The notes under the pieces are model-generated. The model was not told the DNA's origin, made no database searches, and worked only from the letters and a program-made list of their open reading frames with translations. Below, piece by piece: positions 25,198 to 51,235 of a DNA stretch of 64,000 bases. A program made the position numbers and the translations under genes. Origin of the DNA: Candidatus Omnitrophota bacterium (GTDB taxonomy: Bacteria; Omnitrophota; Gorgyraeia; Tantalellales; Tantalellaceae); assembly GCA_015231405.1 (NCBI GenBank), contig JADGBR010000001.1, positions 385,762-449,761 of the forward strand. Reading direction: 5' to 3'. Each line of letters begins with the position of its first letter. The first letter of the stretch is position 1.

Positions 25198-28100
25198 ATG
25201 AAATTTAAAAACTTTGTAAAAATTACAGCTATCCTGGTAACTGTTTCGTTCCTCCAACAGAGTACGTTCGGATACGCTCAATTCGAGTATGGGGATAGCA
25301 CTATCACTAAGACCGATCTAGGCGGGAATGTAGAGGAGAAAAGCGTATCATTTGTGCCGTCTTCTTTAGCCACAATAAAAAGATCCTATACCGGCGATGA
25401 TAAGAACGCGCCCGGAATCATACATATCCAGGATGCCCATTGCGTTTATCCGTGCCAGGAGAGGATAAATACCATATTGGAACATTTGGAAAAAGACCGC
25501 GGGATAAAAAGGATTTTTCTCGAGGGCGGTTCGGGCCGGTATGACCTTACGGTCTTCAGGCAAATAGCTGACAGGGAATTGAGAAGAGAGGTGTCGGAAG
25601 TTTTTATGAAAGAGGGCGTAATTAACGCCGCCGAGTATTTCGCGGCGAATAGCGACAGGGAGATCGAGCTTATAGGGGTCGAGGATCCGGCTCTATACAT
25701 GAGGAATCTAGGCGTTTTCAGGGAGACGAATAAGTCCATCGCGGATGAGACGGGGCTACTCGAGAAGTTCAAAGTTCTTATGAAAAAGATAGCTTCCGGA
25801 GTTTTTTCTGAGGATCTGGCCGTATTTTACAGTTTTTACGAGGGGCATAAGACGGATAAGATCGGACTTGCCGAATATATCATGTACCTTTCCAAGGTGA
25901 CTGGGGCCGCCCCGGGTATGAGATCACCGGACGCCGGGAACATAGCGAAGATAATGAAAATATCCGCGATGGAAAAAGCCGTCGATTTCAGGAAAGCCGA
26001 AAAGGAAAGAACGGATATGCTGGATCACCTTTTCAGGACCCTACCAAATTCGATAAAAGAGAGGCTCTTGACCGAGATGGTCGCGTACAAGAAAGGGGAA
26101 CGTTTAGACCTTGAGTTCAACGAGTATCTTGCTGGCGTATTCGGGAATACGGGTGAAAGCGCCGGGGTACGTCATGAGGAGCTGGATAAATATATCGAGT
26201 ATTTGAGGGAATGGTCTGGAGTGGACAGCTTTAAACTGATGGAAGAGATACCGCTCATGGAGAACGAGATTAAAAAGCGCTTCGCCGCGAACGCGGGAGA
26301 GCGAACTCTCGTAGATATCTGGGACAGGGTCGAGCAAACTGAAAAAATCCTAGGGTTCAAGCTTGTGAGCGACGAATATGTCCGGATCAAAACCGATACG
26401 TTTAAATACACTTTCGGGGGGATACTTGAGGATATGAGGAAAGCGTTCGCAGTGGATTTTTCAGAAGATATTGAAGACCTGGTAGCCGAGTTGGGAAAAG
26501 CGGATCGGGATAACCGGTTAATTAAAAATGTCCTGGGATTTTACGAATACTCGTTCGAGCGGGACGGGGTTTTTATCGAGGAGATAAACAACGCCGGGCG
26601 GCAGGGAAACGGTGCCGGCGACGGGGTTAGTGTTTTTATGACGGGAGGGTTCCACACCGGCAATATCTGCTCGCTTTTAGAGAAGAACGGCATGTCTTAT
26701 GTTTCGGTCATACCGAAATTCGACAACGAGGAAGGTTCGTCCGAGAGGTATTTCGGGATACTCGCCGGTAAGAGGGAGGGCCTCGTGGGCGGTATAACCG
26801 CGGCGATGTCGAACCTTCAGGTCCCGACGCTCCTCGACCAGGCGCTCGGCGCGGAAGTGTGGGGGAAGGGCGGAATAGGGCGGATGGAAGCGGCGGTATA
26901 TGTTCAGACGCTGGTCTCAAAAGGATATAGGGTAGAGATATACGACGATGTGACGGGAGAAACTCTTTTCTCTTACGGTAAGGGCGGAAAACTCATCCGC
27001 TGCGCCCGGACGAATTTCCCGCGAGAGGTGCATGAGAGATTTATAGCCGAGACGGAGGGCGATGCCGGCAAGGCAGGCATCGCGGGTGAGGAAGTGGCGG
27101 ACGACGCGAATGTGAACGCGGAGAATGTCGGGAAGGTACTTAAGGAAAGGGTGTACCTGCGGGATGAAGAGCTTGAAGCGCTAGTTAGCGGTGTCATAGA
27201 CTACCATAGCAAATTTAACGAGCTACTTGAAGGGGTAAGGAAGGCGGCGTCCGACCCCGCAAGGTTCAAGATATCCATACGCGAAATAAAAAGGTTCTCG
27301 GATGATTTTAAACGCATTTTTCTCGCGCTTGTAGCATCAGGCTATGAGAGGACGGATTCACTGACCACGGCTATAGGGTACGCTTCAAGGAATATCTACA
27401 TGGATATGCTCGACGAGAAAAGTCCTGAGTATCAGGCCATGGCTCGATTAATGGCGGATACCGATATTTTAAGTATCCCCGGGATCGTAAAAGGGAACGG
27501 CGATAACCTGTTTGACAGGACATACGCTAAAGTTGCCAGGGCTATTGATAGCGGGATACCCGCGCTATTCATAAAAGACAAGGATGCGCTCGGGGCTCTC
27601 GAGCGGGCGATAAAGAAATACTCGCAAAAACCCGGAGTCAAGGTCGTGAATATGGAATGCACGCCGGCGAGCGACTCGGCTCAGCTTATCGGCGGGTTCA
27701 TGCCGAAGGGGAGGGTCGATGTCGCGGAGGCTTACAAACGGGTGGGTATGGCTATAAGCGGCAAAGCCGCTTTATCGATAATCGAAATACTCGCTGAACT
27801 TCTCGATAAAAAGAAAGAAGAGGTCACCGAAAAGGAAAGAAAGGACTTCACGGAGATATATGACGAGGGGAAGGGCGACGAAGGGCTAATTATAGCCGCG
27901 GCTATGGTCCTAGAGGACCCGAAGTCGTGGCGTAACAAGCTAGTTTACGAAAAAGGGCTGCTCGCGCGTATCATCGATAAATGCAAAGAGGATAAGGACA
28001 CGACTTATATTTTCAACATTGAGAACATAGAAGCCCTCCCCGGAAGGATCCGCGCCCAGCTTAACGCTTTCCTCCTGACAGGCGAACTCCGCGTCCCCGG

Positions 28101-31100
28101 CGCTCCCGGAAAAAAGGACAGAAAACTTATCGCCCCGAAGAACCTCCGGATAATAGCGTCGATGAGCGATGAGGCGGTACTGGAGGACGGAGCTTTCTAC
28201 GACAGGTTCCTCCGGAAAAAAGTCGCAGGAGCGAATGAAGATGACTTTAGAGCCTTGGCAAAAAAGGATCTTCCCGAAATAAAGGAAGATACCGTAAAGT
28301 TCCTGTTAAAATTCAGGGAAGAGCTGAATTCCGGGGTATCCGAATGTTCCCTTGCCGATCTGATGGGCATCGTTAAATATGCCGCGGAAGCGGCATCCGT
28401 AAATGGCGACAGTGTGGATCAGTTAGTTATCGCGGCCTATGAAACAGGGAAATATTTTGACGCTAAGGGCGTTTCAAAGGAGAAGAGGGCGGATCATGAT
28501 TCCGTCGTTATGACATCGTTCGCCGCGATGAATGATGACAGTTCATTGGCTCCGGGTGATGTGAGCGGAGTATTAGATCTTTTCTGGGATCCGGCGAGGC
28601 CCGGCTCGGGCCCTCCGACCTTCGCGTGGGGCGGTCCGGGAGGGCTGGACAGGGCGACGCTTATAAAGATCTTGCGTCATATAGCCGTCGTCGCGGGCGG
28701 CAAAAGCGAGATGACGATGGGGGAAATGTCCGGCGTATTTCAGGATGAGTTCGGCGCTCTTTTAAATACTGAAGTGGTGGATCGGTATAAAGGGAAATTC
28801 GGGGATAAACCGGTCGATGAGTTCGTGTCTCTCCTCGTATTTGCCGTTGATGGGAATGACAGAAGTGGCGTAATAGTAAATCTTCTCGAGCCGTTCGGTC
28901 CGGCCGCGGGTGGGGCGGGAACGGATATCGCCGAACTTATGAAAGTAAAGAACTCGGGCATGAGATATGACCGGGGCGAGAAAAAAATAATTTTTGATAT
29001 TTACGCTCCCGGACTTAAGATCAATAAAGATATTTCGGATAAGCTCGAGCGGTATATCTCGGACAGGGTTAAGCAAAAGGGTAAGGGGGGATTCTCCCCG
29101 GATGACGAAGATGGGGCTATCCGAGACTTTTTCATGGACGAGCTCGACTATTTCATCGGCACCGACGAAAAACGCATGCTTTCAGCGGTAGCGCGGTCGA
29201 TGGAATACGGTAACGGGGTCATAAGGATAGAAGGCGCGACCGGCGCCGGTAAAACTTATACGGCTGAGCTGCTCTCCCGCATCATGGATTTCGGCGATGA
29301 AGTGAGGTCGCGTTTCTATTCGGAGCCGGTCAATAAGGAGACCAAACTCGCGAGGTTCCTCGGCTATTTTCGCGCCGACAAGTTCGGCTATTACTCCATA
29401 GACCAGACGACCCCTTTCCTGGATATCTTAAAATATGGCGGCGTTGCCGCCGTATCCGAGATGAATACGTCCGTTAAGGACGAATACGCCAAACTCGCCT
29501 GGTGGTTCATCCAGTTCGCCCGCGGAGACAGGGAGATATTCCTGAACGAATATCCCAGGAAGGGCGAGAACGGCGCCATAAGCCCGTCGATAAAGAGACA
29601 CCCGAAGGCGCTCATCATAATCGACGTTAACCCCGAAGATTACGAGGGGAGGGGCAAATTCCCGCGCGAGCTTATCGAGAACACCCCGAGCGTTTATGTC
29701 GACGAGAAAATGAACGATCTGGAGCATATTAAAAAAGTGACGAGAGCGTTCCTGAAACATATAGACGACGGCGAAAAGAAAGACGCGCTCGTCGACTTCA
29801 TAGCAGGCGCGCATGTGAAGATCTTCGACAAGGTGAAAGAAGCGAACGAGAACGGGGACAGGTATCCGCCTTTGAGTTACAGGGAGCTCGCGAGGGTCAC
29901 GAAGAGCATACCCGCGGGGCTTGCCATGAATGAGTCCCTGGTCATGGCCGAAAAAGCGGTGAACAAATATTACATCAAGGCGTTCGTTTCGGAACAGATA
30001 AAAAGCGATCTGAAATTAGGTCTTCTATTGTGGTCGGCTACCGAGGAGAGGGACGAGATAATAAAAGATGTTCTGTTCGGCAACCCAGAGGGAAGGAGCC
30101 CGCCTGTCCTGGTCACATCTTCGTCTGATGAAAACCCGTTCGAGGATATCGATTCGGCGGTCAATATGTTCAAAGAAGAGAACCCCGATAAAGAACTTTA
30201 CCGTGAACGCGTGAGGGTAACCTGGTTCGATGACGAGTTCAAGCTTTTCGGCGGGTTCCTGCCGATATCCATCAGGGAAAAAGCCTCTGCAGCCGCGGAG
30301 AGGTTAAAGGTCCTCCTTGCCGACGCCGGGACGAGAGATAAGGCGAACGGTATATACAGGGAGCTTCAGGCGAAGAGCGCTCAGCCTGTCAACGACCTCC
30401 CCGAAGATATTTCCGGCCTCGGCGATAACTTCATCCTTTCTTTAAGCGAAGCTCTTGACGCGCTCCGGAGCGGGCGTGAATGGACCCAGGCGCTCAGGTA
30501 TGAGAACGGGATAATACCGAGGCTTATCGATGAGGCGGAGAGAGAGCGGAAAGCTAAAGGCAAAGACGCGAAAATATTCATTATCGAACTCGAGAATATC
30601 CACAGGATAAAACCTGGTCTCGCCGTCGCGTTCAACTCGATCCTGCAGGAAGGCTACTATTATGATCCCGCGAGCCATACGAGAAAACAGGTCCCCGCCA
30701 ACCTGAAGTTCGTCGCGACAAGCGTAAGCGAATCGCCCCTTCCGTTCTCCGTGGCTGAAGAATCGAGGTGGGTGAGGCTTAAACAGACCGAGAGGGTTTT
30801 TGACCCCCTGGACACGGGTTCCGCTTTTCAGGGGATCATACCGGCCATGATACGGGATGAGCGGAAAAAGAGAGTGGAGGCCGGCATGCCGGACGGCGGG
30901 GAAGATCCGTCTACGGACGACTTAAATAAAGTCACGCAGTCTGTGCTGGCATATCTTAGGCCATATTTCATAAATCACCTGACATCGAGCAAAGAAGCTA
31001 AGATATTTGTAGCGGATTTCATCAAGGAGCTTACCAGCATTCCCGATATGGTAAAACTCATACGTGATGACGACGAGGGCTTTTTAAGGCTGATCTCGCG

Positions 31101-34100
31101 TTCTTTCGCTTTATCGGCGGCGATGTCTTTCAGGGGACAGGGAGCGGGTGACTCCGTCAAAAAAACGTGCCGGGGCTATTTCGATACGACGCTCGCCGGA
31201 AAAGAGGCGCTCGAAAAAGACGACCTTCTCGAGGATATAGACGAACTGGTCCGGGTGGAAGCCGCTACGTTCCACGCTTTTAACTCGGACAGGATAGTCC
31301 TTTACGAAGGTCCGCCGGGCGGCGGTAAGACCGACATGGCCATAGACGTAGCGAGGCGTCTCGGCCTCAAGGATTACCTCTTCTCCTGTCACAATAGGGT
31401 ACACACTTCGGAGCTTCTCGGCACTTTCTCCCAGCGTTCTAACGGCGATTTTTATTATACAGGAGTACCCGACTCCGACGGCCATTATCCCGAAGCCGAT
31501 TTTCTCGAGGCGATGACCCATGGCGGCGTTTATATCTTTGACGAAGGCGCGATAGGGAAAAGGGCCCAGGAACTTTTAAGCGTCCTTTCGGTGCTGGCCC
31601 GCGGCGAAAAACTCTTCATGCTGAACGAGATACCTGGATATCCCCCGAAAGAGATCAATGTCCATAAGGATTTCCACATTATCATAACCATGAACCCTCC
31701 GGAGGAGACTGTAGGCCGCGAACCGCTCCCGTTAGAGGTTTACGACCAGGCCCGCAAGATCTGGATAAATAACGGCCTTACGCAAGACTCATACAGGCGG
31801 ATCATAAGGAAGTTCCTCGACCTCTCAGCCAGGGAATTCGGCATCACTCTCTCGTCCCTTTTCGGTTCGGATGAGCCAGGCGCTTCCGACGCTTTCGCGG
31901 ACGCGCTTACGGGGATACATAAGACGATAAATTCGCTTGTGGGTAAAAAGATAAGCCTGTCGGAGAACGTCAACCTCCACCTGGTCACCCTCCGGGACAT
32001 GAAGGCGATGGTGAAGGATATGGTGAGATACTCCGCAAAAGGGGCGAACAGAACTGAGGCTTTCAGGATAGCCGTGAGGAACGCGTATATCGACCAGTTC
32101 AACAGGCTCCGCGATAGGCCCGGCATAGCCGACGAGTTGGGCAAACTTTTTAGAGTGGATGCCATGACGGGTACCAGGGACGTCCTCGCGGCAAACGGGA
32201 TAAATATCGACGTTTTCCTGGCCGGTCTCATAGAACGCGAACTTGATAAACGATATCTTGATATAAATGAGTTGGGCGGCGATGAGAGTCCGGGGGCTAT
32301 CCTTAATGAGGCACCGCTTGTTGGCCCTATACCCGCTTTGGACCATCCTTTCGGCATAGACGGTAGTGATATCGCCGAGACTTATGAGGAGCCGGAACAA
32401 CTCCGTGCTCCCCAATGTTTCAGTTCCAATGAGTTCATGAAAACCCGTGTGGACTATACCGTCAAGGAAATGATAGTCTCGCCATTATCAGGTCCCGCAG
32501 GAAAAACGATACTTGGACTTGTGTGCGGATTATGGAACTATACGCTGGGCAGGTTGTTCGGAAGAATAATCCCTCTGGGGAGATCAAAATTCTCTTCCGG
32601 AAATTTTAGAGTCTCTACGGTTAAAAAGGTCAGGGGTGGCGCGGATGTTCAATACAATAGGCCAGAAAGCGGTGAATGGCAGCCATTAATGGCTAAAACT
32701 GACAGATCGTTAGATCAGTATTTGGGTAGGATCAGGGCGAGCGCCAATCCTTTCGTCCGTTACGAACTTCCCGGGAATAACCGTGGGGAGAGATGCGTCA
32801 CTTCTTTGAAAATAGGCGGCAGGGAGCATCTGGCCTTTATAGACGAGAATGAGCATAAGACCGTCAATATCGCGGACATGTCCCGGCCGGGGTTGACGAG
32901 TTCTATAGTATCTCTTTCGGCGGGTAGAAGCGACATCAGTTACATAAAAGCGATATATATAGGGAAGAAACAGTACCTCGCCGTGTGCCATGTCGGCGGG
33001 GAAATGGCACTTTGGGACCTATCCCGGAAAGGGAAGGAAAAGGTCATTTACTTAAATTTCGGGTGGGATGTGCAGGATATTGCCGGGATCGATCTTCATG
33101 GGCAAAACTGTATAGCCATTCTTCACGCGTATAAGCTTACGGGAAGGGTTCTCTCCGACGGATGTATAAGGGTCATAGATCTCGGGACGGGAGAGATCCG
33201 TTCAGTGGACCTTCCGAAAGGGTATTTCAGGGAAGGGAAGATCTTTTCCGAGAATGACTCCGGCAAAAACAAGCTTTTTGTCAACGGACGGACTAACGAG
33301 GTCTACATGTATGACCTTGATACAAAAAAACTCTCTATGGGGTTGACCGATAGAAAAACAATCGCGCCGGGCGACGTCTCAGTATTTGGTATGGGAAAGA
33401 CCTTTTCAGTTATGCCCGCCGAAATACCGGATACGAATGGGCGGGAGGGCGTGGCATTATTGGATTGGGATAGTTCGGTGCAATGGGTATATCCGCTGGA
33501 GCTTCCGCATAATAAGGTAAAGGTAATGGCAGAGGTACGTTCCGGAGAAAAGACATATCTTGTCATAGCAGCCGGTAAGGGGATAGTGTTATGGGACGTG
33601 ATGGGGAAAAGCTATAAGAGCGTTGAATATCCTTTTGACGGGCATATACAGCGCATAACAGCGCTCGGTGATACCGGATTATTCGCGGTCACGGATAATC
33701 ATGGAACGGTCCGTATCTGGGATATAGACATAGAACGGCATATAGCCGAAACGCGGGTAAAAGCGGAAGCCCTCGAGCGCGGTGAGATACCCGCCGGAAA
33801 TGACCTCCCGTACGGTTTAAAGAAAAGGGACCTTTACGGCCCGGAAAAATTTCTTGGCATTAAAGAGGAGGTAGAGACCGGGATCGCCCCTCGCGCTGAA
33901 AGCGGCGCGTCGTGTGTGTATAGTGGGATCCAGCTTAAAGCCGGGAAGAGCGAGAAGGTCAGATCTGGCGGCGACATAACCAAGTTCCGGGAAGCGTTAG
34001 TGTCGGATAGAGAAGCGCGTCTTTTTACGAGAGAACTCTCGAAAGAGGAAATTGTCGCGATACCATCCGCAAATATCGTTGATATTGATAAAGATGCGAG

Positions 34101-37100
34101 TTGGGGACCCGGAGTTCTCGATATGGATAATATTTTTGTAGAGTTAGGGGCGACCCGCGGGGAGTCGCTGTTTTTCCGTGTCGAAAAACTGTCGGATCAG
34201 CTCGAACGTAATGACATACATGAAATACGCGAACTTAGGATGGCATTGGACGATAAACAGGAAAAAGTTGCCAGCGGTGTCATAGACGTGGCCGGTTTGA
34301 GCTGCCTCCTGACAACCGATATAAAGGGCGTGATATCGCTCTGGGACTTAAAGAACGACAATGTGGTCAGGTTAAAAGTGTGTGACAACCTGGTCGATAA
34401 ACTCGTGGTGATGAAGAACCGAGAGGGCGACGTGGAACTTGTAGTGCCAGGCGACAATAATCAGCTGCTGTTCCTCAGATTCGCCGGGGGCTCCGGTGGG
34501 ATCATACCAGCCGGAATGAGGCGAGTTAATACTACCGCCGATATAAGCGGCCTCGACGTTATACGTGACGATAAAGAGAGGGACTGTCTCGTTTTTGCCG
34601 GTACTGAGAAACTGATTGCGGAGCCGGGACAGATCAGCTACGGTCTGGACAGATACCCGACGCTCAAGGTTCTCAGCTTTACAGGCGAGACGAGCGGATA
34701 TATTACGGAAATAAAAGCTCATCCTGAAGCGCCTGGGGTACTGAACGTCGTCAAGGACGATATGGGGCTGGGCCGGCTGGTCTCGGGCGAGAAATTCAAC
34801 ATGAAATTATGGGGTTTTGCCTGGAAAGACGGGCGCATTGAGGGGGGAAGTGTCTCTAAATTCCAGGTAGAGGGCCTTGCAATGGAAAACGGAACGTTGA
34901 TAAAAGACGATATTGGAAGATCCCACCTGGTTTTGCCGGTCAAATACGAGAACGGTAGAAGGCTCATCATGCTGGACTTCGATTTTAAGAACGGCGTCCT
35001 GAAAGGAGGGATATCGAGGACCGTTGACCTGAAGCTTAAGGATATCAGCGGCGTCACGGCCATAAGCGATCTTGACGGAGACGATCGAGTAGTCGTATCA
35101 TGCGATAATTCCGTTATAAAAATGATCGGTTTCGACTGGGATAACGGTGAGATCAAGGGGGCGAATAGTATCACTTTCGAGAACCCTGATTCCGGCGGCG
35201 ACATATACGGCGTTCACACTTTTAGAGCGGAAGATGGCACCGAATACCTGGTCGCGAGGCGTTCCGGAGGCCGCCTGGACTTATGGGACCCCTTCATCGC
35301 CGACAAACTCGCCGAAGCCCGCGATCTTTACGATTCAGGGGAACGGTCACAAGCCGCTGACACCACGCCCCCCCTGTCCGCCGAAGCCTTGGCGAAGGCG
35401 AATGCCCCAAGCCCCATGCCTGCGATCCCCCACGGCTTTACCCGCGAGCAGCTCTTACAGGAACAGGACTGGCACGGCGAGAAAGTCGTGCTTTTGAAAG
35501 GCGATATAGTTAAAGGTATTCCCATGGAAGATATCAGAAAAGGCGATAAATACGGATGGTACGGTGAGAGTTACGAGAAGGACCCGACAGTGACCGGCGA
35601 GGTGATTCACCTGACGAATGGGCCGGCGGACGGATTATCTATAATGACGAAAACAGGCAAGATGGTAAAGGGAAAAGAGAGAAAATTCAAAAAGCTTGGA
35701 ACGCCTGAAAAAGGGAACACACTGGGCTGGTCCATGACCCGGAAAATACATGAAGGGGAACTTGGGACCGGTAAATTCGAAAGGAAGGACGAGGAGTTCT
35801 TCAGGCTGATGAACCGTGATGATCAAGGGGATGAAACCCGCCGGCACATTGATGCCGGCAACGCCTATATTATGACCGGGGAAATAATGGATGAGATCGA
35901 CCATGGGGACCCGCGGAAGGTATCCGATATGGCGGAAAAGATAAAACATGACAGCGAGGTGAACGAGATCAAGGTCTTTAAATGCAGAGGCCGTGAGATC
36001 ATCGTGACGACCTGTTTGACTAATTTTATACGGATATGGGATATTGAAAAGAATAAGGTTACCACGATACTCGGGCATAACAACGTGATATTTGGTCTTG
36101 AGCTATTGGAACGGAGTGACAAAGTATATCTCGTTACAGGTTCCTCGGATAACATGATAAAGTTCTGGGCTCTTAACGCGGTTGGCGAAGTCGATCGGGA
36201 TCATGTTACCACACTTCACGGTCATAGTGATTCAATAAACGATATTCGCGTGATCGAACGGGAAGACGGGGTATATCTGGTGAGCGCGAGCGAGGATAAG
36301 ACCGTGAAATTCTGGAAGTTAAAAGGTGCCGGCGGCATCGAATTTTCTGAAGTCACGGCGCTCAAAGGGCATAGCGGTCAAGTGACAAAACTTGAATTCT
36401 TTGCCCGCGACAAGAAGCTGTATATGGCAAGCGGGGACAGAGTCGGCGCGGTCAAGATCTGGGCTTTCAGGGGGAAGAGCGGCGCGGATATGGAGAGCGT
36501 GACGACGCTGCCTGAAATGAAAATGGACGTGAGCGATCTCAGGATATTGGAATGCGCGGGTAAAATGTATCTGGCTGCCGGAGAAGGTAATGGAAATATA
36601 AAATTATGGGGTTTTGCCGGGGATGCGGGCGTCAATATCAGCGGCGTTACTACAGTAAGGGTATGCAACAATGGTTTTGGCGTCATGAGCTCCGGCGGCA
36701 GGACCTGGCTTGTCACCGGCGGCTCCGACGCCGTAGTGAAACTCTTGGAGATCAGCGGAAAGGAAGGCGAGGATGTGGTCAAGGGCATGACCGTGCTTAA
36801 GGGACATGGCAGTTACGTGACAGGCGTATATGTATTCGAACGCGAAGGTAAACAGTATCTGGCGACCGGCAGCGAGGATAAAACCTTCATTGTCTGGGAC
36901 CCCTTCCGCGAAGAAAAATTCCACGAAGCCCGGGCCGTTGTCGAAGCGTGGGAACGCTCGCATGCCTCGGACCCCATGCTCCAAGCTCCAAGCTCCATTC
37001 CCGAAGCCCCAAGCCCCATGCCCGACATCCCCCACGGCTTCACCCGGGAACAGCTTCTTTTGGAACAGGAATGGCATAGCGAGGAGGCCGTTCTTGTGAA

Positions 37101-40100
37101 TGGAGATGTGTCTTTCGACGAGGTGAAGGACGGAAAACACGGCTGGTTTAGGGAAGGGCGCGAGAACTTTCCGTCCGAATGGCAAGAGGTCGAACCTATT
37201 ATGCCGGACAGGGAAAGAGGAGAGAGCCTGGATGAAGCCGAGAATAGATTTTATGATGTACAGGCTCCAAGGGGGAACACGCTCGGCTGGTCCTTTAAAA
37301 GGGGGATAAAGGGGGGTGAGAGCGTTACAGGAACCGTTCAAATGAAAGCTAAAGGATACTTTGATTCAACGAACTGGGCCAGCCCCGCTCTCGACGTTGG
37401 CGAGTACTTGGCAAGTGGCAACGCTTACGCGATGAGGGAAGGGATGGAACCGTATTTTGACAGATACGATTCGCATAAAATGTCCGATATGGTGGAAAAG
37501 ATAACGTTAGGTCTGGCAAATACGGATCTGGTTCATATTTCGTTCGATTGGAATGGACGGCAATATATCGTTTCCGGCGGGGATGCGGGCATAAAGATAT
37601 GGGACATCTCGAGGGGAAAGGTAATGACGCTCAAAGGGCATGCGGGCAAAGTCACGAGTTTGCAGCTCATCGAGCGAAAAGGTAAAAAATACATCGCGAG
37701 CGGCGGCGATGACAATGATCGGACCATCAAACTCTGGGGGTTGGAGGATGGAGAAGAGTTGGGCATAGGTTTTGTGACAACGATCAGAGGGCATTCGGCC
37801 GGGATAATTAGTTTACGGGTGATAGGCGATAAATATCTTGTAAGTGGAAGTAATGATCTAACGGTAAAGCTCTGGGAGTTCGAGGGTGATGATGAGTTGG
37901 GCATAAACACTGTGACAACGCTGAAAGGTCATAGTGATTGGGTTAGAAGCCTGGAAGTGATCGGGACCCCCAAGGGGATATTATTCGCGAGCGGGGACAT
38001 GAACGGTAAGATAAAACTTTGGTCATTGACCGAGAGCGGGGAAGTGATCGCAGGGAACGTATTAACTATCAAAGCCCATGGCGGTTGTGTCCAGGCATTG
38101 AAGCTCATGAGATATGGTGAAAAGACGTATCTGGTCAGCGGAAGTTGGGACAAAAGCGTGAAGATCTGGGAACTGGGAGAGAAAGACAATGTGGATATAG
38201 CGGGAGTTACTGTCCTTAAAGGATTTAAGAATAATGTGCTGAGCCTCGAAGCCATTAGGCGCGGTGATAGGACATATCTGGCGACCGGAGGGGAGGAGGA
38301 CGGAATGGTAAAACTCTGGTCTCTATCAGGCGAAGCGGAGCTCAGTGTGGATGGAGTGACTATTCTTAAGGCGCATACCAAATGGGTCTCGAGTATACAG
38401 GTCATAGTACGTGACGGTAAGGAGTATCTTACCACCGGAAGCGGGGACGATACGCTTATTACCTGGGATCCTTTCCGCAAACAAAAATTCCACGAAGCCC
38501 TGGCCTACCTCGATGCTTGGGAAAGAAAGGTCGAAGGTCCCTCCTTCGTTAAGGCTTCGGAGGGCGGGCGAGGGTCGTCGGTCGAAGGGCCAATGCCCAA
38601 TGCTCCAAGCCCCCTGCCTGACCGGCAGGTAGGCATGCCCGAAGCCGGCCTTGGCGGCGGCGCCGACGACTCCAACGGCCCAGCTTTCAATGCCGTCGAC
38701 CCCGGGATGGACCTTCCCGAGGACAGGGACATAACAGAGGCCAGGTATAAGCTCAGGTCGCGGGGAAGAGCCATGCTCATATGCGAACCTGGTACGCGTG
38801 AACGCGTTATAGTCGACGAAGTGGCGCGGCTCGAAAAATTCAAATATGTTTATAAGCTAGAAGGGCGGCCGTCGCTCGCGCCGGAAGACCTTATAGGCTC
38901 GAAATACCCGGTCCTTGAGGAGGAGAAACGGGAAACGAACGAAGAATTCGTTTTCAAAAAGGGCTTCCTTACCCGGCATATGTTAACGGAGGAAGAACAC
39001 GCTAAATACCTGGAAGAAAAGTCCGCAGGGAAGGATTTCCCGAAAAAACTGCTAGTTATTTACAATATAGACGCTATCGGCGAGAAAGCCAGGGCGTCCC
39101 TCAACAATCTCTTATTGAACGGTTATCTGAACATTCCTTCGGTGGGCAAGCTCTGGTTGCCCGACAATGTCGAGATAATAGCGACGATGAGGGTCGGTTC
39201 ACAGCAGGAATTCTCGAGCGCCTTTCCGAACAGGATGACCAAAGGGAATATGTCCCCGATGGAAGCCAAGGGCTGGGGGGCTTCGGATTTCGCGAAATAT
39301 TGCCGGAATGTGTATGGGTTCGATAAATACGTTCTCGGGAAGGATGATAAAGGCAGACCTTACGATATAGCCGACGAAATTGAGCTTCTTTATGACAATA
39401 TCAGGAGCCAGGAGGTTACGGATCGCGTCTGGCCGTCGAGGATGACTTACGGTTTCACCGTCAAGGACGCTTTAACCCACGCCGAGTTCACTGCGCTCGC
39501 GATAGCGGAAAGAAAAAAGATGGGGCTTGGTGAGCCGGGGAAGGACGAGTTAATGAATATCCTGGTCGACGAGGCTATGAGGGTTTACGGGTTCAAGGTG
39601 CGGCAGTTCCCATCGGATTACGATTCGTTCGTCGATTCCATACTTAAGATGCAGTTTAGCCATAAATACGTGGAAAGGGCCGTTATCCGGGACGACGTGA
39701 AGATATCCGCCGGTAAGCTCAGGGAACTCTCTGGGATACCCATCTCGCCGGGTCACGGCGCTCTAGGAATGACGCTCATTGAGCGTAATTACCGGCTGAC
39801 GCTCGTCGGCAGCATGGTGGGAACTATGTCGGCGATGATAAGGGGACTTGCCGCCGGTAAAGTGGTATCGTTCACCGGGGATACCGGGGCCGCGAAGACG
39901 ACCATGGCGGTCGCGCTCGCGCGTATGACGGGCGTAAAGGATTATGTCTTCAGTATGCATAAGGACGTGAAGGAATACGATCTCACCGGAGCCGTCAGGA
40001 TGACCGATAAGGGCCGTTTTACTTTCGAGATAATGGAGTTCGCTAAACAGCTCGAAGAGGGTAACACCATGCTCATAGTCGATGAGGCCAATATCAAACC

Positions 40101-43100
40101 CGAGATACTCTGGCTCCTTTCCGGCATAGCCCGCGGCGAAAAACAGTTCACTATAGAAAGGCCCGGGGATAAGCCCCATACCTTTAATATAGGAGAGAAC
40201 GTGTACGTAGTATTCACCATGAACCCCGAAGCCTACGGAGGCGGGCGCGGGGCGATACCGATACCGCTCAAGGAGGATATATTTAATATTTGGGTGCCGG
40301 ACTATTACGAGTATCCGGAGATGGCGCGTATAGTCACGGAATTTTTCGGCGGCATGCCGGAGCTCGCCAATATTACTGAGATGACCCCGGCCGAAACCTC
40401 CAAGGCCTCGACCCTTGAATTGGACAACAGGTTTTTCGAGATAAAACGCCTCTTTAGCCATCTTTACGCCAGGATGGAAGTCGAGGACGTAGTCAACGCC
40501 ATATATGATAAAGGGTATGAATTTACAATAGGCACGTTATACGGCCTGACTAAGGATAATGACCCGGCAAAGGCCAGGGAGAAATACTATGAGCTGAAAC
40601 GGGTAGAGGAAGAAATAATGTACGATCCGAAGGTGCGGGGAAAGATGTTACGTATTAGGACAAAGGTCGCGCTAATGGAGAAATATCTCAGGGACAAAGG
40701 CATGACCGTCAGCGTGAATTTCAGTCTATTTACGTGGTGGAGTCAGGGTGTGCGTGAAAAGAACGGCAAAAAAGAAATAATAGTGAATGTCCCGCTATAT
40801 GAGCTTGTCGACAAGAAAGACCATCCAAATATCAGGAAAGAAGGCAAGTCCGACAAGGTCATCGCCGGGCTTATCATACACGAACTAAGGCACTATTTGT
40901 ACAGCCCTAAAGACAATCTCGAATGGCGCGATATCGGTGTTGATATCGGGATAAACAGTTTTGCCCCGGAGATAAGAGAGGTGTTTGACACGTTCACGGC
41001 AGATCCGAAGGATAGGACGGTTAAGCGCCGGAGGGATGTCTTTCAGCTTTGGAACGCTCTGGAGGATGTTCGTATAGATCTTATGGAAAGGGATTCGGAG
41101 CATTTCCGGAGGCTTAAGGGCGCGCAGGAGAACGTCGACGAGATGATAAAGGATATGTTCAAGGATGAGACGAATGACCCGGGAGAGTTCGAGAAGAGAA
41201 AGAAAAAGGCCGTACGCGCCGCCTGGCTCCATCCTCATGCAATGCTGAGGGACGTATTATTCCGCTACGGTTATACGGGGGAATTCGGACCATATTTCGG
41301 GTTTTTTGACGAAGAACTGAAAAAGGCCGTACAGGAATTGACCGGTGCTATGATAGAGGCGACTCAGTCGTCCAAAGCGCGAATGAACATGAGCGATGTC
41401 AGCTCAGCTGGGGATTTTCTTAAAGAAAGGCGGCGCGCGTCAGGGGAAAGCGTTAAAGTGATACTCGAAAAGATATTGCCGAAATATCTTGAGCTCGCCG
41501 AAGAGTCGAAGAAAAGGGTTGATGAGGAAAAAAAGAAAAAACAGGGAGGCCCGAAAGGAACGGAAGTTGAAGAAGGAGACGGGAGTGAAGGCGGAGGGGA
41601 TCCCGGCGAGGGAGGAGAATCCGGGGAAGGAGGAGCGGAAGGTCTAGGTTCGGGTGGAAAACAGGAATTCTTGTTCATGCCGCCTGAACTCATGGAAGAG
41701 ATGTACGGAAGCGGCGATGAAAATAGCGGGGACGAGGGCCAATCCGGAGGGAAAGGAAATACCGGGCCCATGATAATAAGCCCGGGAGCGAAGAACGGTG
41801 TGAGAAAACCAGGTGACGGCCTCCCTGAGGATATGACCCCCCACGGAGGATCCGCCGGTACCCCGGGGGACGATGGCGGCAAACAAAACGCCGGAGGAAA
41901 AGACGACTCTCCGGACGACACGGAGGGCGATGACAATGACGGCCCCGATACCGAGGGCATGTCAAAAGCTAACCGCAGCCGAGCGATCAAGGAAGCTTCT
42001 TCCAAGATCAACAAAGAGCGGCTCAAGGGTGAGCCTATCAATCAAAGGCTCTCCGAGGTCGGAGGCCAGGCTAAACAGCTCGCGGAAGGTCTGATCAATA
42101 TATTCAATGTGCCGGAAGAAACCGAGGTGGAAGAGTCCGCTTACGGCAGGATCATTAACATGATAAGGATCATCATGAAGAGCATGACCCCTTTCGACGA
42201 GGAAGTCGATACGGGTAACCGCCCGGATCTCGCGCTTGGAATGACGGCCGATCTTTCCGGAAGCATGAAGGATTTCTTCCCGGCGATAAAGAAACTGAGC
42301 GCCATTTTTATCAGCTCGTTCCAGCGGATAGGTAAAAAAGCCGATTTCTCGGTGACTTTGGACGGGCCCGACGAGAACGGCGTCGACCATCCCCACAATG
42401 TCATAGATTTCGGAGAGAAACACGCACAGGACGAGCTCAACGGCGTACAGAACAGGGTGGAAAAGACCATGGCGAGGGAAGGCGGCGGAGGGATACACGC
42501 TTACAGCTGTCTTGAAGCGATAGTAGAAAAACACAAACGGTCAAAACAGAAAAATAAACTTGAGGTCATATTCACGGACGCTATGGACACCGAAGGAATG
42601 GAGTCCGAGAGGGAAGAAAAATTCCGGGAAGCCGAAAAACTGGGTGTTTCCATTTTGGTCGTGGGTTTCAGGAACCAGCAGAACAAAATGCAGGAAGTGT
42701 TCGGCAAGCACGCTTCGTATATCCTGGTCGACAGGGATAAACCCGAAGCGATAATAGGGGTCGTCCTTAACGCCGCCAAGATAAAGGCCAGGACCGGCAA
42801 GATACCTAAGGGGAATATCGGCCCGATGTTCGACCAGAAAGAGGGCGGAATGCTTGTTCGTAATGCTATGGACCTTATAACGAACGACGACCTCAGCGTA
42901 AGGATGAAAACGGAGAGCGAGATAAACGCCATGCGGTCGCTCGCCGATGTTCGGAGAACGGCGCTATACGAGGCGCGGATGACCGTCAGACAATTCAGCG
43001 TCCGCGACAGGCTTGAAAAGCTTATTGCCCGGTCCCGTGACGCTATAAGCGACCTCTGGAGGAATAACGGCAAGGATATAGTCGTTATGCCCGACCTTCT

Positions 43101-43686: not shown

Positions 43687-43829
43687 AGGAAATATATCCT
43701 GCAATATATCGCGAATAAATGTCCCCTCGAGCCTGATCAAATTCCTGAATAACAGGACGAAATCCTGAAAATGAAAAAGCGTTTTTTTGTTATTTCAAGA
43801 TATCATCTGGCGCAAATTCAGCTTAGAAA

Positions 43830-45256: not shown

Positions 45257-48200
45257 TTATAGCGATCTTAATACTTCTGTTTCGGCCTTATAGAATTCTC
45301 TTATTTCATTTACGTTAATAGGCCTTATCACCACAAGGATCTCTCCTGAAGCAACCAGCCTCCTCACTTGCTCAGAGTCCTTTGGAGCGATCATGTCCAG
45401 AAAATCCATATAATTTACCGTACCTGACATTAACGCCAGTCTTTTAGCGAAAAGCTCCGTCGCCTCGTTGATATCTTCCAGGTAAAGGCTTACATCGGTA
45501 GGCGCTCTCTCTAACCTGCTAGCCCAATGAGCGCTGTCCAGGTAGGCTATGCCCGCCAAGATCGACCCCTCAACCGGCTGTGTTTTTTTTCCTTCCGGGT
45601 TTTCGGTGCCTAAGTAGACCATATAGGCGTTTTTTTCAACTTCTTCATTCCTCATGTCTCCTTCGTTCCTTGATGTGAACACAATGGCTTTATTAACGCC
45701 GTATTGTTCTGTCATGGCAGCTATATCATGTACTTCATCGGGATTTGTCTCGTCAAAGAAACGTATCGTTATATTTCCTAATTTCAATTCCTTTATTTTG
45801 TCGCTTGCCGCGCCTCTGACTTCCTGTATATACCCCTGAAGTACAGAGTCAATTTCACCGGCCGCCTCGGCATTACGGCCTATTCCTATAAACGTCTCTT
45901 CGCCTTCAAAAATATTTTTCGAACACTTAGCAAATATACCCATGTCAAGATCTTTGGCCTTCGCCATGAGGTCCATGAAAATGTCGCTGTCAACGCTTAT
46001 CGGTTCAAGCCCATTGACCTTGATGACGATTGACGGCTTTTCGATATTTTTCAACGCGCTCGTTTCTCTTTCTACGCTTGGCTTTTGGCTGTTGATCTCA
46101 TGCGCAGATACTCCGCCGTTTTTGCCTGGCATTTTAGCGCTGGTCACTTCCTCATCAGGAACATCTCCCGCTGGCACACCGGCGAAAGTCGGAACTTGGC
46201 GGTTACCTGGCTTACTCATCGCGTTTATCACTATGGATTTCTCCATCTCGTCACGGTTTGACATGCGGTCTAGCTCATACTGGCTTGCTTCATACGCTTT
46301 TATAATATCATCCTTTACATCGGATTCCAGGGCGAGCGAGTTTATGTTGTCATGCAGAACCTTAAGAATAGCTTTAAATACCGCAAAGTCTTTCATTATC
46401 TCATCTGTACCTATTCCGCCTCTTTCTTTCGTGTCAAAGGCTTTGTTTAAAAGTATATCCGTAAAGCCTCCCCAAGGGTTCTTTAAGCGCCATTCAGCGT
46501 TAATATTCCTGAGCATGTCAATAATCGCGTTCCTTTGAAGCGCATGGATCTTATTCGCCGAAAGTCCCCTTCCGTCCCCGGAAGGTTTCATGCCAAGGAT
46601 CTTCACCAGGTCTCTCTTCGTCTGAAAGGTATTTATGATCGTACCCACGCTGTCTGCCTGCAGATTGAACAGGAATTTTCTTCTTGCTTCATCAGCTATC
46701 TCCGCAAGGTCATCCCATTCGCCGGATACCATCTTTATGACCAGGTCGTCATCACCGAATCTGGATCTGTCTTTGCCGACCACATCACGCCAGAAAATGT
46801 CCTCATTCGATACGGCAGTATCTCCCTTAAAACGAAGGTCAGATTTTTTTATCTTGAATTTGGCTTTTGTTCCGTTAAAGGTCTCGGCGTCTTTTACGCC
46901 GATTATCTCTAATTCACCGTTTTTCAATAAGCCCAGTAGAAAATCGTGTATCTGTTTGTTGTATCCCACATACTGATACCCTCTTGCCTTTTCGCCTTCA
47001 AGCCAGGCCTGATGAGTCTGTTTGGCAAGTAAAGCCAAAGCGTCATTCCCGGCCGAATCATATATGGAGCGTGTTTCATTAACAAATTTATCACGCATAT
47101 CTCCGCTTATTTTCTGCAGACTTTTCAAGGCATCATAGTTGGTCAAGCCGTTTTTCATCCGGGCAATGATCTCCCATTGCCGCACATTCCATTCTTCAGC
47201 CATGGCGTAAAACACATCATAGCTGAATGAACCTTGAATTACCGCTTTATCGGCAAACATATCCGTAAGATCTTTTACGGTCTTAGGCACCAGGTTGAGC
47301 TTAACATGTTTCAGGCTATTGATGTTTTTACCGGCCCTTACCCTGAAATCATTGTCCCCTTTTTGATAGACCTCTGTAAGGTTTCTAATAGATCCCGAAT
47401 AGAGGCTTATGACCTCATCCTCAACGCCTAGAGCTTGTAATCTTTCCGTTATTGCCTGGGCAACCTTCCTTTTTGCGGCGTTTTCGGTCAAAAAACTCTC
47501 CGCCGCCAATGCGCCTGATATATCCTCACCTATACCGCTAAGGCTTTCGACCTCCGGCCTTTCCCGGGTATTTTTTAATATTTCCGCTTCCAGTGCCGCT
47601 TCAGAATCGAGCTCTAAAAGTATGTCATTTATCTTTTCGGCGTCTTTCTGAAGAATACCCACCACCCCGGGGTTTAAGGCATATTTTCCAATATCCTTTC
47701 CGAGAACCGCGAATATTGCCTTCATTACGTCAAAATCTTTTTTAATTTCTTTCACGCCTATGCCGTTTTCACTTACGTCAAATGGCCTGTTCAGTAATTT
47801 ATCGTTATATCCTCCCCAGGGATTTTTCAACCTCCAAACGGCGTTTATATTTCTAAGCATTTCGATCACCGCCTGTTTCGCCTCATCGACGTTATCTGAT
47901 ACCATTCTGCTCATTAGTTCCGCGTCCTGCATAGCGTTAATGATCGCTCCTACGCTGTCTGCCTGCAGCTGGTAAAGGTAAGCCTTTCTTCCGGCAGGAT
48001 CTATGCCTTCAACATTATCGGCTATCTCAACTAGATCATCCCAGCTGCCGGCTATATTCTTTATTACAATATCTCCATCATCAAATGTATCGGCTTTTTT
48101 CCCTATAAGCTTCCAGAAGTCTGCCGCGGAATTGCCGGGCCTGAATTTAAGATCATTTTTCTTTATTTTAAACTTGGTCTTAGCGCCGTTAAAAGCGTTA

Positions 48201-51200: not shown

Positions 51201-51235
51201 TAATTAGTAATGGTCTTTCGTTTATAAATATTCAT
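45257..51235 (-). CDS. Giant 1992-aa secreted protein with the shared N-terminal twin-GX2H domain, an internal ~230-aa duplicated module and the shared C-terminal EVLRSL domain
   Basis: AAGGA lies 7 nt upstream of the ATG at 51235. Signal peptide MNIYKRKTITNYVSLATSVFFMFSLFSFGSFETSAKA. ILHIQDAHC (~50999-51025) and TGGFH (49814-49828). Duplicated modules ALLLLAKETHEAWLVSEKARGDKYVGYN... (~48360-47700) and ALALLAKQTHQAWLEGEKARGYQYVGYN... (~47050-46350), each ending ...WRLKNPWGG.... C-terminus ...INVNEIREFYKAETEVLRSL. Confidence 0.9.
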   Translation of the reverse strand: MNIYKRKTITNYVSLATSVFFMFSLFSFGSFETSAKAENLQAQVPPDIAGLDIPLSMGSVQDVLPGTNGKTILHIQDAHCNYFAQKSISNIIGYLSANHGVDLVFLEGGSGQYDLSVFTDIQDTAIREEIADYFVREGRLSGPEYFKLLNPEAVELFGVEMPELYFKNLNAFRDSMSFKDEAEKDINTLTSMVLNYRSKIYSKEMIQVSGSLKDQRGKKDGFKELVLLLNKNCGTYGVSMDGYGHFNDLVKVIEQEQYIDFRKARQERNLLTEKLSKKLSRNDEQELAMMSLKAGTKDINEDDLYKYLFRKARKELIDFDELPNLVKYSAYLEQFEKIDKAMLHKELAAIEEKLMLSLMSEDDQKDLYLIEKHLEIIGDLLRAGLVKDTYLYYKSHKSEFSVSNIKRLFNGFNRKHGFASELPESIDRLDGFMQQMEKFYDCSFERDEAFMSKINDKLIADGTNIAVLVTGGFHKSNLRELCAAEGYSYISVMPKFKVYEGCPYFRLLSGDISEFDKFLDMVMALNPANANIAILSAFSDVESPDRARIERQVAVLAKIGRGENFIVQQEWNESALGGKTESSYVVISGSEIDKADNLLVSFKMDMKGDGETARTVSVGIYKGSKPENEQDAMIVNGDLKNIILNISEITSAHITGSENSAAVKIGDQVRDTAGDPRQTAQDVFNNSLPEEGYQDLVYSEKGSPYDGYKVHFRVLQPNMHTEPVFFNADRKINFAIRKKRRNVDEIDICVTRETMEMLKSDPAMLEALKEHEVKDRRNRGSVEVAGSHRWAWAQVKFGKNRDGMMNLMKFMIDNMMPADVLNLIEEYHKEEKGRRATKIEWISDTEEKEWGDFEKEVYDYCKKRIEEAKFVTLEDLVNVLGNGRSLEGVFGSAQQVKDKVNSDIILALSKAWDTDVIEVEARLAGALPVYEGLMKVKAENDRLRKAFESGTLELNDSDNQALLLLAKETHEAWLVSEKARGDKYVGYNIAIHRGIVKMMAAGDLTIEGIADVNAFNGAKTKFKIKKNDLKFRPGNSAADFWKLIGKKADTFDDGDIVIKNIAGSWDDLVEIADNVEGIDPAGRKAYLYQLQADSVGAIINAMQDAELMSRMVSDNVDEAKQAVIEMLRNINAVWRLKNPWGGYNDKLLNRPFDVSENGIGVKEIKKDFDVMKAIFAVLGKDIGKYALNPGVVGILQKDAEKINDILLELDSEAALEAEILKNTRERPEVESLSGIGEDISGALAAESFLTENAAKRKVAQAITERLQALGVEDEVISLYSGSIRNLTEVYQKGDNDFRVRAGKNINSLKHVKLNLVPKTVKDLTDMFADKAVIQGSFSYDVFYAMAEEWNVRQWEIIARMKNGLTNYDALKSLQKISGDMRDKFVNETRSIYDSAGNDALALLAKQTHQAWLEGEKARGYQYVGYNKQIHDFLLGLLKNGELEIIGVKDAETFNGTKAKFKIKKSDLRFKGDTAVSNEDIFWRDVVGKDRSRFGDDDLVIKMVSGEWDDLAEIADEARRKFLFNLQADSVGTIINTFQTKRDLVKILGMKPSGDGRGLSANKIHALQRNAIIDMLRNINAEWRLKNPWGGFTDILLNKAFDTKERGGIGTDEIMKDFAVFKAILKVLHDNINSLALESDVKDDIIKAYEASQYELDRMSNRDEMEKSIVINAMSKPGNRQVPTFAGVPAGDVPDEEVTSAKMPGKNGGVSAHEINSQKPSVERETSALKNIEKPSIVIKVNGLEPISVDSDIFMDLMAKAKDLDMGIFAKCSKNIFEGEETFIGIGRNAEAAGEIDSVLQGYIQEVRGAASDKIKELKLGNITIRFFDETNPDEVHDIAAMTEQYGVNKAIVFTSRNEGDMRNEEVEKNAYMVYLGTENPEGKKTQPVEGSILAGIAYLDSAHWASRLERAPTDVSLYLEDINEATELFAKRLALMSGTVNYMDFLDMIAPKDSEQVRRLVASGEILVVIRPINVNEIREFYKAETEVLRSL

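Follow-up and report, generated by a model that had tools for sequence, protein, structure and literature searches.

The window, a stretch of 64,000 nucleotides from a Candidatus Omnitrophota genome, contains three genes (A, B and C) for very large proteins that are built on one plan, i.e. a predicted signal peptide, an N-terminal head domain, a body and a C-terminal tail domain. The features are listed in Table 1. Walker A motifs start at residues 1346 and 2038 of A, and a Pfam scan of the body of B gave no match.

Table 1. Features of genes A, B and C (positions refer to the window, residues to the respective protein)
Feature	Position	Strand	Description
Gene A	25198..43686	+	6162 aa (ORF list); signal peptide, head, body, tail
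Gene A, record			MBF0215721.1 at NCBI, named 'AAA family ATPase'; identical to P0030
Gene A, body			AAA_5 and WD40 propellers (Pfam scan)
A, predicted Sec signal peptide	25198..25281	+	residues 1-28; MKFKNFVK, h-region, GYA/Q
A, head domain	25345..26922	+	residues ~50-575; predicted TIKI-fold alpha/beta core with helical insertion
A, first motif H76-I-Q-D79-A-H81	25423..25440	+	end of strand 74-79; conservation 98-100% (152 family members)
A, E109 (LEGG)	25522..25524	+	invariant Glu, end of strand 105-108
A, all-helical insertion	25687..26604	+	residues 164-469, ~14 helices (DSSP on predicted models of A and C)
A, E454-R455-D456	26557..26565	+	Arg and Asp invariant; helix before last putative catalytic strand
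A, second motif T482-G-G-F-H486	26641..26655	+	true GX2H, 100% conserved; after strand 478-483
A, C-terminal tail domain	43009..43683	+	ends ...ILKIRKLDVNDIAAQESLQTAFWKSV-COOH; tail HMM E 9e-13, exact C-terminus; alignment
Gene B	45257..51235	-	1992 aa; signal peptide, head, body, tail
B, head domain	49601..51094	-	residues ~48-545; family HMM E 4e-152; BLASTP vs C E 8e-91
B, tail domain	45260..45934	-	ends ...ILVVIRPINVNEIREFYKAETEVLRSL-COOH; tail HMM E 3e-8, C-terminus
Gene C	51441..58232	-	2263 aa; signal peptide, head, body with two FHA domains, tail
Gene C, record			MBF0215725.1 at NCBI, named 'FHA domain-containing protein'
C, head domain	56538..58091	-	residues ~48-565
C, tail domain	51444..52118	-	ends ...IRMQITRINYQEIADWDEAQKEVLRSL-COOH; tail HMM E 4e-12

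The peptides that an earlier note on this DNA had quoted from A were located (GIIHIQDAHC, nt 25414-25443; VFMTGGFHTGN, nt 26632-26664), together with EGGSGRYDLTVF (25522-25557) and YVSVIPKFDNEEG (26698-26736). The peptides quoted from B and C are present as well: ILHIQDAHC at 50996-51022 and GGFHK at 49811-49825 in B, each 3 nt away from the positions given earlier, and in C IIHIQDAHC exactly as given (57999-58025) and GGFHT at 56814-56828, again with a shift of 3 nt. The proposed paralogy of the three heads was confirmed by pairwise BLASTP over ~515 aa (A/B, E 2e-55; A/C, E 1e-61; B/C, E 8e-91), a similarity far above chance; the common part is the N-terminal head only, which comprises ~525 aa instead of the ~450 aa assumed before, and nothing else was similar in these pairwise comparisons. 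A family HMM searched against all ORFs of the window detected exactly three copies (E 4e-129 to 3e-190) and no fourth match at E<=10. The 5,122-aa neighbour (776-16144) was considered as a carrier of the head and was rejected by BLASTP and the family HMM.

The head profile matched 9,577 representative proteins at E<=1e-3 and 6,643 at E<=1e-30, with representatives defined as 50%-identity clusters. In the best 150 representatives (652-7165 aa) the profile match always starts near residue 10, and each protein carries a single, N-terminal copy of the head. The family was confirmed at no fewer than 543 genome loci, with up to five per genome, and all of the 80 loci examined belong to Omnitrophota or PVC-labelled MAGs; the family is very large and apparently restricted to Omnitrophota. 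Across the 80 loci, no conserved neighbouring genes pointed to a substrate and none of the window's own neighbours was conserved; the genes found next to the head in subsets of these loci were housekeeping genes only (ETF, acyl-CoA dehydrogenase, FabF/FabG). One relative carries an Elusimicrobiota MAG label.

Residue conservation was computed over 152 family sequences. Near-invariant are H76, D79, H81, E109, E146, E162, R175, R455, D456 and H486, and within the helical insertion E259, F264, A267, E350 and E355 are conserved. The twin GX2H motifs described earlier hold for the second motif (GGFH), whereas the first is a GX2H in A only: the corresponding residues are GIIH in A, TILH in B and VIIH in C, the family consensus has no conserved Gly there, and the invariant motif is H-(I/L)-Q-D-A-H. 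H81 sits two residues past strand 74-79, in a Q-D-A-H motif without Gly, and it is likely that H81 of QDAH, not H76 of 'GIIH', is the catalytic His, the earlier register being off. E109, the conserved Glu expected after the first motif, is indeed invariant and follows H81 by 28 residues, compared with 26 for the equivalent pair in YbaP; H85-E113 of Bcr135 and H3902-E3930 of RRSP are also 28 residues apart (PMC6254334). The invariant R455, which matches the basic residue of the TIKI (Tiki/TraB/GumN/Ere/ChaN) superfamily by sequence position only, precedes H486 by 31 residues (RRSP R4001-H4030, 29 residues; PMC6254334). The wide spacing of the two motifs was also borne out, with 405 residues from H81 to H486 versus 211 in YbaP and 128 in RRSP (PMC6254334). 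YbaP has the same order of elements (GSIH, VEAD, ELEG, QRN, GALH), its V-G-A-L-H being at the position of T-G-G-F-H486 and its Q-R-N parallel to E-R-D, and the invariant His, Glu and Arg of the head, compared along the chain, appear to follow the order and spacing of the TIKI superfamily.

Searches against Pfam and NCBIfam at E<=10 gave no match for the three heads, 41 family members or the family consensus, including none to PF01963, PF05139 and PF04187; the positive control, YbaP against PF01963, gave E 8.8e-44. The head thus constitutes a family of its own, outside these three. A link to the TraB_PrgY_gumN and Erythro_esteras profiles, as envisaged in the earlier note, was not found in Pfam, and hhalign of the full head, the core alone, the N half and the C half against the E. 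coli YbaP (TraB) profile gave probabilities of ~1% (<=2%) in a non-equivalent register, the YbaP alignment being shallow (>=65% identity). The family profile found nothing relevant among PDB sequences.

The evidence for the fold consists of two predicted structures, of the A and C heads. Both models have an alpha/beta core with a parallel sheet and flanking helices, split by the helical insertion of ~300 aa, which in A is bordered by the core strands 157-161 and 478-483. When compared with solved structures, the C head scored 8.7 with 2rad, 8.6 with 2g5g, 8.1 with 5t09, 8.0 with 2qgm, 7.7 with 6xcq and with 8bqs_DQ, and 7.0 with 5w6l; nearly all solved TIKI-superfamily representatives take the top ranks for the two separate models, so that the predicted fold comes nearest to solved TIKI members. 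The His, Glu and Arg residues of the putative site are all placed by the models at C-terminal strand ends of the parallel sheet. A Foldseek search against the PDB, also suggested earlier, yielded no match at E<=1e-3, probably because the helical insertion dominates. The predicted fold together with the invariant His/Glu/Arg set supports assignment to the TIKI-superfamily fold, and the structural comparison thus upholds the earlier proposal of an undescribed domain of this superfamily at the N-terminus of three exported large proteins. That the likeness instead represents convergence on a generic three-layer alpha/beta sandwich, with the head as an unrelated enzyme or domain, is very unlikely, considering that the TIKI structures lead the ranking for both models, that their alignments cover 40-60 residues more than those of other folds, and that the conserved residues seem to keep the TIKI order and spacing. 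The negative sequence tests weigh little in its favour, since a genuine TraB (YbaP) profile also matches no solved TIKI structure (HMMER, E<=10).

We consider it probable that the head represents a branch of the TIKI superfamily which had so far gone unannotated and is apparently confined to Omnitrophota, and that it is the constant N-terminus of modular, Sec-exported proteins that make up a very large family. The lack of a profile link and of a Foldseek match, and the first motif without the canonical Gly, were counted against this explanation. The head would be catalytically active as a hydrolase, and a peptidase or an esterase would be the likeliest type. In its site, the H81/E109 pair may activate water as in Ere/Bcr135 and RRSP, H486, E162 and R455 would complete the site at the C-terminal sheet edge, and H76 and D79 may form an additional metal site; the insertion of helices could be a lid or a substrate platform. 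The head may process the very protein that carries it, in cis or in sister molecules, with the conserved tail as a possible site, or it may act on components of the envelope of a target cell. Not every member of the TIKI superfamily is an enzyme: ChaN binds haem, and the C2 domain of the Pasteurella toxin (PMT) is inactive. After these models, the head might have the TIKI fold but be a non-catalytic module for ligand binding, docking or export/retention, e.g. for holding the tail or a secretion component; this is improbable, however, as the His/Glu/Glu/Arg/His set as well as D79 and D456 are ~100% conserved despite ~50% average identity of the heads, a pattern that is expected of catalysis rather than of binding.

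Each copy of the head directly follows a signal peptide, as had been claimed, with a Sec-type pattern in A, B and C by a heuristic call; in the model of A, a helix (residues 2-25) is followed by a disordered linker (25-50). Family-wide (146 N-termini), an n-region with a net charge of mostly +2 to +5 precedes an uncharged h-region of ~17 residues and an AXA site of the type D-A-W-A-A/V-D. After Sec export, the putative hydrolase would work outside the cytoplasm. The N-terminal segment could also be an uncleaved anchor or non-functional, so that head and body stay in the cytoplasm and the head acts there like the Ere esterases; the bodies behind the signal carry ATP-dependent modules of a cytoplasmic type (AAA/Walker A in A, protein kinases in relatives) as well as SAM-dependent and phospho-signalling (FHA) domains, the ATP-dependent ones being hard to reconcile with a place in the periplasm or outside the cell, and Ere, RRSP and HopBA1 all act in a cytoplasm. 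Topology calls have, in addition, been reported as unreliable for Omnitrophota giant proteins (bioRxiv 10.1101/2023.11.21.568195). We nevertheless regard a cytoplasmic location as unlikely, since the positive charge, the short h-region and the acidic AXA site, all kept throughout the family, together match a cleaved Sec signal with the N-terminus inside, and no TM segments beyond the N-terminal one were predicted in A, B and C.

Between the head and the tail, the bodies have a mosaic make-up, with only 992 of 9,453 body pairs showing any similarity. New here is a shared C-terminal tail domain, common to nearly all full-length members and ending in ...IRPIDxxEIxDWxxAQxxVLRSL-COOH; the earlier note was silent on this domain, which is as conserved as the head. 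The tail HMM matched at the exact C-terminus in 103 of 153 representatives, and ~17 more have variant tails. The last ~260 aa of B are common to P0008, P0114 and P0137, at the C-termini there too, and the last ~500 aa of C to at least 19 other family members, always C-terminally. Conversely, the head is also present in 20 of the 24 tail-bearing ORFs at the loci, and the other four are either truncated at the edge of a locus or resemble split genes. Representatives of ~650-720 aa (e.g. P0153, P0110, P0017) have no tail; these may simply be truncated, and are therefore no proof of a stand-alone head. Head and tail divergence correlate weakly, though not at random (r 0.19; Mantel 0/500), and heads do not cluster by tail class, hence there is no sign of tight head-tail co-evolution. 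The tail profile had no match among PDB sequences, nor had 17 tail members in NCBIfam.

Head and tail might also be the chassis of a new class of polymorphic effectors, in which the variable cargo (kinases, AAA+ ATPases, FHA/WD40 scaffolds, methyltransferases) is exported into a host or prey cell that contains ATP and the head serves as the protease for processing or release, perhaps with ...VLRSL-COOH as its recognition site; we put this forward tentatively, as a possibility on the less likely side. The logic would be analogous to that of MARTX toxins, with unrelated parts.

The bacteria of the phylum Omnitrophota are ultra-small and probably live as predators or parasites; they have many very long proteins, most of which lack annotation. 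A single head profile gathers ~10,000 protein clusters of this kind and provides them with a testable, putatively enzymatic fold, and with a common head-body-tail plan in which shuffled cargo of a cytoplasmic type lies behind a Sec signal. Within the TIKI superfamily, the head would be the variant with the largest insertion known so far; its first motif would be a modified form, and its family a huge expansion in one lineage. Should the head turn out to be a processing protease, the maturation or release of such proteins would be explained, and a large share of the 'dark' proteome of Omnitrophota would become experimentally approachable.

Compared with the known systems, the head has no HMM match with TraB/PrgY/GumN proteins (PF01963; E. 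coli YbaP, Tetrahymena 8bqs_DQ) or animal Tiki; its first motif is QDAH with the additional invariant H76 and D79, in place of the GxxH motif of TraB/Tiki, core strands 3 and 4 are separated by a helical region of ~315 aa, compared with ~85 aa in YbaP, and, unlike TraB/Tiki, the head is joined to a specific tail and to bodies that are thousands of residues long. The Ere enzymes are cytoplasmic, stand-alone esterases of ~400 aa; relative to Ere and Bcr135/136 (EreC 6xcq; 2rad, 2qgm, 3b55), the head lacks a match to PF05139 and has an insertion about twice as long. TIKI modules likewise occur inside very large modular exported proteins or effectors in RRSP (a MARTX effector domain), the C1-C2 domains of PMT, and HopBA1; RRSP is an internal cargo domain, whereas the Omnitrophota head is the invariant N-terminus. 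MARTX toxins are secreted by a T1SS, carry glycine-rich repeats and a CPD, have conserved termini around a variable central cargo, and have no Sec signal. Pfam scans of A, B and C detected neither glycine-rich (A/B/C) repeats nor a CPD, and A, B and C have a Sec-type signal peptide, unlike MARTX; the likeness is architectural only. The active site of RRSP consists of two His, two Glu and an Arg with a spacing comparable to that of the head (PMC6254334).

The head family is absent from the description of Omnitrophota giant proteins by West-Roberts et al. (bioRxiv 10.1101/2023.11.21.568195) and from a 2026 survey of long Omnitrophota proteins. In the former, N-terminal C39 and S8 peptidase domains are reported on giant proteins, and a role in processing either the giant protein itself or other substrates is proposed for them, the N-terminal regions being otherwise without identifiable domains (bioRxiv 10.1101/2023.11.21.568195). 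Like these C39/S8 giants, the proteins described here would carry a peptidase-type module beside the signal peptide; they differ from them in the predicted fold and the putative catalytic type of this module.

The window derives from a Candidatus Omnitrophota MAG. Three long genes in it, designated A, B and C, share an N-terminal domain of ~525 amino acids (the head; residue numbers are those of A) and carry a conserved C-terminal domain (the tail); the stretch between them is referred to as the body. Every peptide quoted in the earlier note was present in the translations, with the B and C motifs located within 3 nt of the positions it gave. The head that it proposed as common to the three proteins is real and far beyond chance: pairwise BLASTP gave E-values of 2e-55, 1e-61 and 8e-91, with the likeness limited to the first ~520-570 residues, and a family HMM run against every window ORF recovered exactly three copies, those of A, B and C (E 4e-129 to 3e-190), and no further copy at E<=10. 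NCBI product names follow the body domains ('AAA family ATPase' for A, 'FHA domain-containing protein' for C), and the head is without annotation. The G+C content of gene A (window 26000-44000) is 50-53% vs 40-48% elsewhere in the window, a shift limited to this single gene. Tandem head-bearing genes, like the B/C pair, are found in other genomes too: two lie within ~8 kb on CAZGOG010000026.1 (L066/L067), and locus L049 has two complete head-and-tail ORFs.

Coordinates of the features in the window
Feature	Position (nt)	Strand	Remarks
Head-less 5122-aa protein	776-16144	+	AAA_5 x3, VWA, late TM segments
480-aa four-TM protein	16973-18415	+	
Exported 1506-aa protein	18743-23263	+	BACON/Ig-like (HYDIN/Cep192-type) domains
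Gene A	25198-43686	+	6162 aa
Motifs of A quoted in the earlier note	25414-25443, 25522-25557, 26632-26664, 26698-26736	+	
Region containing the body of A	26700-43686	+	
Tail of A	43009-43683	+	ends ...ILKIRKLDVNDIAAQESLQTAFWKSV
Gene B	45257-51235	-	1992 aa
Tail of B	45260-45934	-	ends ...ILVVIRPINVNEIREFYKAETEVLRSL
Gene C	51441-58232	-	2263 aa
Tail of C	51444-52118	-	ends ...IRMQITRINYQEIADWDEAQKEVLRSL
HExxE...H motif of C	52461-52526	-	residues 1903-1924
276-aa protein	58336-59166	-	N-terminal TM segment, retropepsin-like aspartyl protease domain (PF13650, 7e-19)
Exported GH5 cellulase	59314-61524	+	with DUF5060

Among 152 aligned heads, 92-100% conservation was found for P54, G58, H76, Q78, D79, A80, H81, Q87, E109-G-G, Y115, D116, R129, G140 and E146 in the first part, for G160, E162, Y167, N170, R175, E259, F264, A267, E350 and E355 in the middle, and for F448, S452, R455, D456, T482-G-G-F-H486, N489, P506, F508, Y518 and G524 in the last part; A, B and C retain every one of them. 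Of the twin GX2H motifs described earlier, the second (T482-G-G-F-H486) stands, as does the conserved Glu after the first (E109); the first has to be revised to H-x-Q-D-A-H, since its Gly is variable (GIIH in A, TILH in B, VIIH in C).

Pfam-A and NCBIfam gave no match to the three heads even at E<=10, and no more than four relatives came from a word-indexed search. When 1.84 billion representative proteins were searched with the profile, 9,577 matched at E<=1e-3, of which 6,643 also passed E<=1e-30; the 150 top matches range from 652 to 7165 aa, each with one N-terminal head. In a scan that took a single genome for each GTDB species, at least 543 loci were confirmed; the top 80 all come from Omnitrophota or from MAGs carrying the label 'uncultured Planctomycetia', and a genome contributes at most five of these 80. 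Every named relative is a 'hypothetical protein' without a Pfam domain, and one is labelled Elusimicrobiota. The literature search found no paper joining Omnitrophota with Tiki, TraB or erythromycin esterase; according to a preprint, N-terminal regions of Omnitrophota giant genes are generally without identifiable domains except C39 or S8 peptidases (bioRxiv 10.1101/2023.11.21.568195). The family is undescribed, and represents an expansion of ~10^4 clusters in one phylum.

A rule-based reading of 146 family N-termini supports a head directly after a signal peptide, as proposed earlier: the n-region carries a net charge of mostly +2 to +5 and is followed by an uncharged stretch of ~17 residues and an AXA site of the type D-A-W-A-A|V-D. 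The same features are seen in A (GYA|Q), B (AKA|E) and C (SPA|Q), none of which has a hydrophobic segment besides the signal region. The bodies are mosaic, with similarity at E<=1e-10 in only 992 of 9,453 pairs. Domains identified in them include, for A, WD40 propellers and AAA_5 domains whose Walker A motifs are canonical, for C, FHA, and for relatives, multiple Ser/Thr kinases, metallophosphatase, ABC1 kinase, GlnD nucleotidyltransferase, methyltransferase and HATPase_c_2. ATP- or SAM-dependent cargo behind a Sec signal is the main unexplained point; either the cargo works in the cytoplasm of another cell or the topology prediction is wrong, and in one rival explanation the head-bearing proteins are retained in the cytoplasm. 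The body of A is homologous to the head-less 5122-aa neighbour in eight segments (best E 3e-31), so the same body type occurs with and without a head in one locus.

Conserved extreme C-termini were unexpected and are new here. The tail consensus at the exact C-terminus is ...L+I+PIDxxEIxDWxxAQxxVLRSL, most representatives ending in LRSL, RRSL, ATSL or LRAL. When all window ORFs were tested with an HMM built from the last 70 residues, A, B and C were the sole matches (E 6e-13, 9e-13 and 6e-9). The same HMM matched the exact C-terminus of 103 of 153 representatives; of the others, ~17 have variant tails and the remainder seem truncated. Upstream, weak conservation with an alpha/beta-like pattern extends over ~200-320 aa. 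The tail matched neither NCBIfam nor PDB sequences, and full-length tail-bearing members had no Pfam match. Of 24 ORFs with a tail in the 80 loci, 20 have the head too, the remaining four being cut at a locus edge or apparently split. The ~900-aa members consist of little besides head and tail, and in larger ones a body separates the two. Heads are much more alike than tail ends (mean pairwise identity 51% vs 26%), their co-variation is weak (r 0.19; Mantel 0/500), and no clustering of heads by tail class was found. Head and tail occur together on bodies that are otherwise unrelated, which makes a role of the head in processing, docking or release of its own protein an attractive hypothesis; a reading of the family as a MARTX-like effector chassis, in which the head would be the processing protease, seems rather improbable. 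The extended ~500-aa tail of C contains H-E-L-G-E-G...R-H-T, an HExxE...H motif common to five representatives (P0037, P0019, P0068, P0083, P0013) and partial in P0008; the motif has no Pfam match and may be a metal-binding or catalytic site.

The 5122-aa and 480-aa proteins have a C-terminal domain of ~200 aa in common (25% identity, E 2e-14; ends ...YLKAA and ...FLMAA), which resembles the 'LPPI...MKSL' tail variant of some head-bearing proteins and also occurs in an ORF of locus L033. The retropepsin-like protein is encoded immediately upstream of C in the same orientation, and was not found as a recurrent neighbour in the 80 related loci. The 1506-aa protein and the GH5 cellulase would fit a locus in which surface or polysaccharide-acting proteins abound.

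The earlier tentative assignment of the head to the Tiki/TraB/GumN/erythromycin-esterase (Ere)/ChaN fold superfamily (TIKI, to which PrgY and RRSP also belong) is supported for the predicted fold, at moderate statistical strength. PF01963, PF05139 and PF04187 gave no match at E<=10 with single members, 41 members or the family consensus, and hhalign gave a probability of ~1% against a profile of YbaP, a genuine TraB protein of E. coli that scores 8.8e-44 to PF01963. As calibration, the YbaP profile matched no solved TIKI structure at E<=10; TIKI branches are mutually invisible at such sensitivity. As no sequence test ties the head to a TIKI family, it lies outside every existing Pfam family and counts as a new one, placed in TIKI by its fold. 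Confident AlphaFold2 models from a 41-sequence alignment (A: pLDDT 83.2, pTM 0.77; C, as replicate: 83.0, 0.73) are built alike: the signal peptide forms an N-terminal helix, a disordered linker follows, and core strands 58-64, 74-79, 105-108, 112-114 and 157-161 precede an insertion of ~300 residues (164-469) that is helical throughout, after which come core strands 478-483 and 501-506. Foldseek gave no significant match, and HopBA1, Bcr135, EreC, ChaN and RRSP recur among the weak ones; fold convergence is the rival explanation for this likeness.

The TIKI catalytic set comprises 2His/2Glu and a conserved basic residue at the edge of a parallel sheet, e.g. H85-E113 in Bcr135 and E3900, H3902, E3930, R4001 and H4030 in RRSP (PMC6254334). 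In the head, D79-x-H81 follows strand 74-79, E109 and E162 end strands 105-108 and 157-161, E-R455-D lies on the helix preceding strand 478-483, and G-G-F-H486 follows that strand. Read from sequence order and modelled secondary structure, the first catalytic His probably corresponds to H81 rather than to H76, the residue favoured earlier; H76 and D79, invariant as well, are further candidates for a putative metal site. The best-supported reading is an exported TIKI-fold hydrolase: after Sec export and signal cleavage, suggested by sequence rules, an alpha/beta core would hold a site centred on H81/E109 and completed by E162, R455 and H486, with the helical insertion as a possible lid or substrate platform and, by analogy with characterised Tiki, PrgY/TraB, RRSP and Ere, a peptide or ester as substrate. 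The rival here, a non-catalytic TIKI-fold docking module, would share the fold and not the activity. The H-to-E spacing of 28 is identical in the head, Bcr135 and RRSP, the R-to-H spacing is 31 residues vs 29 in RRSP, and YbaP has the same element order (GSIH41, VE67AD, ELE159G, QR228N, GALH252). Since the fold is that of a known superfamily, the head is not categorically new; new are the undescribed family, the modified first motif, the longest insertion among the TIKI members compared, and the fixed place at the start of head-body-tail proteins.
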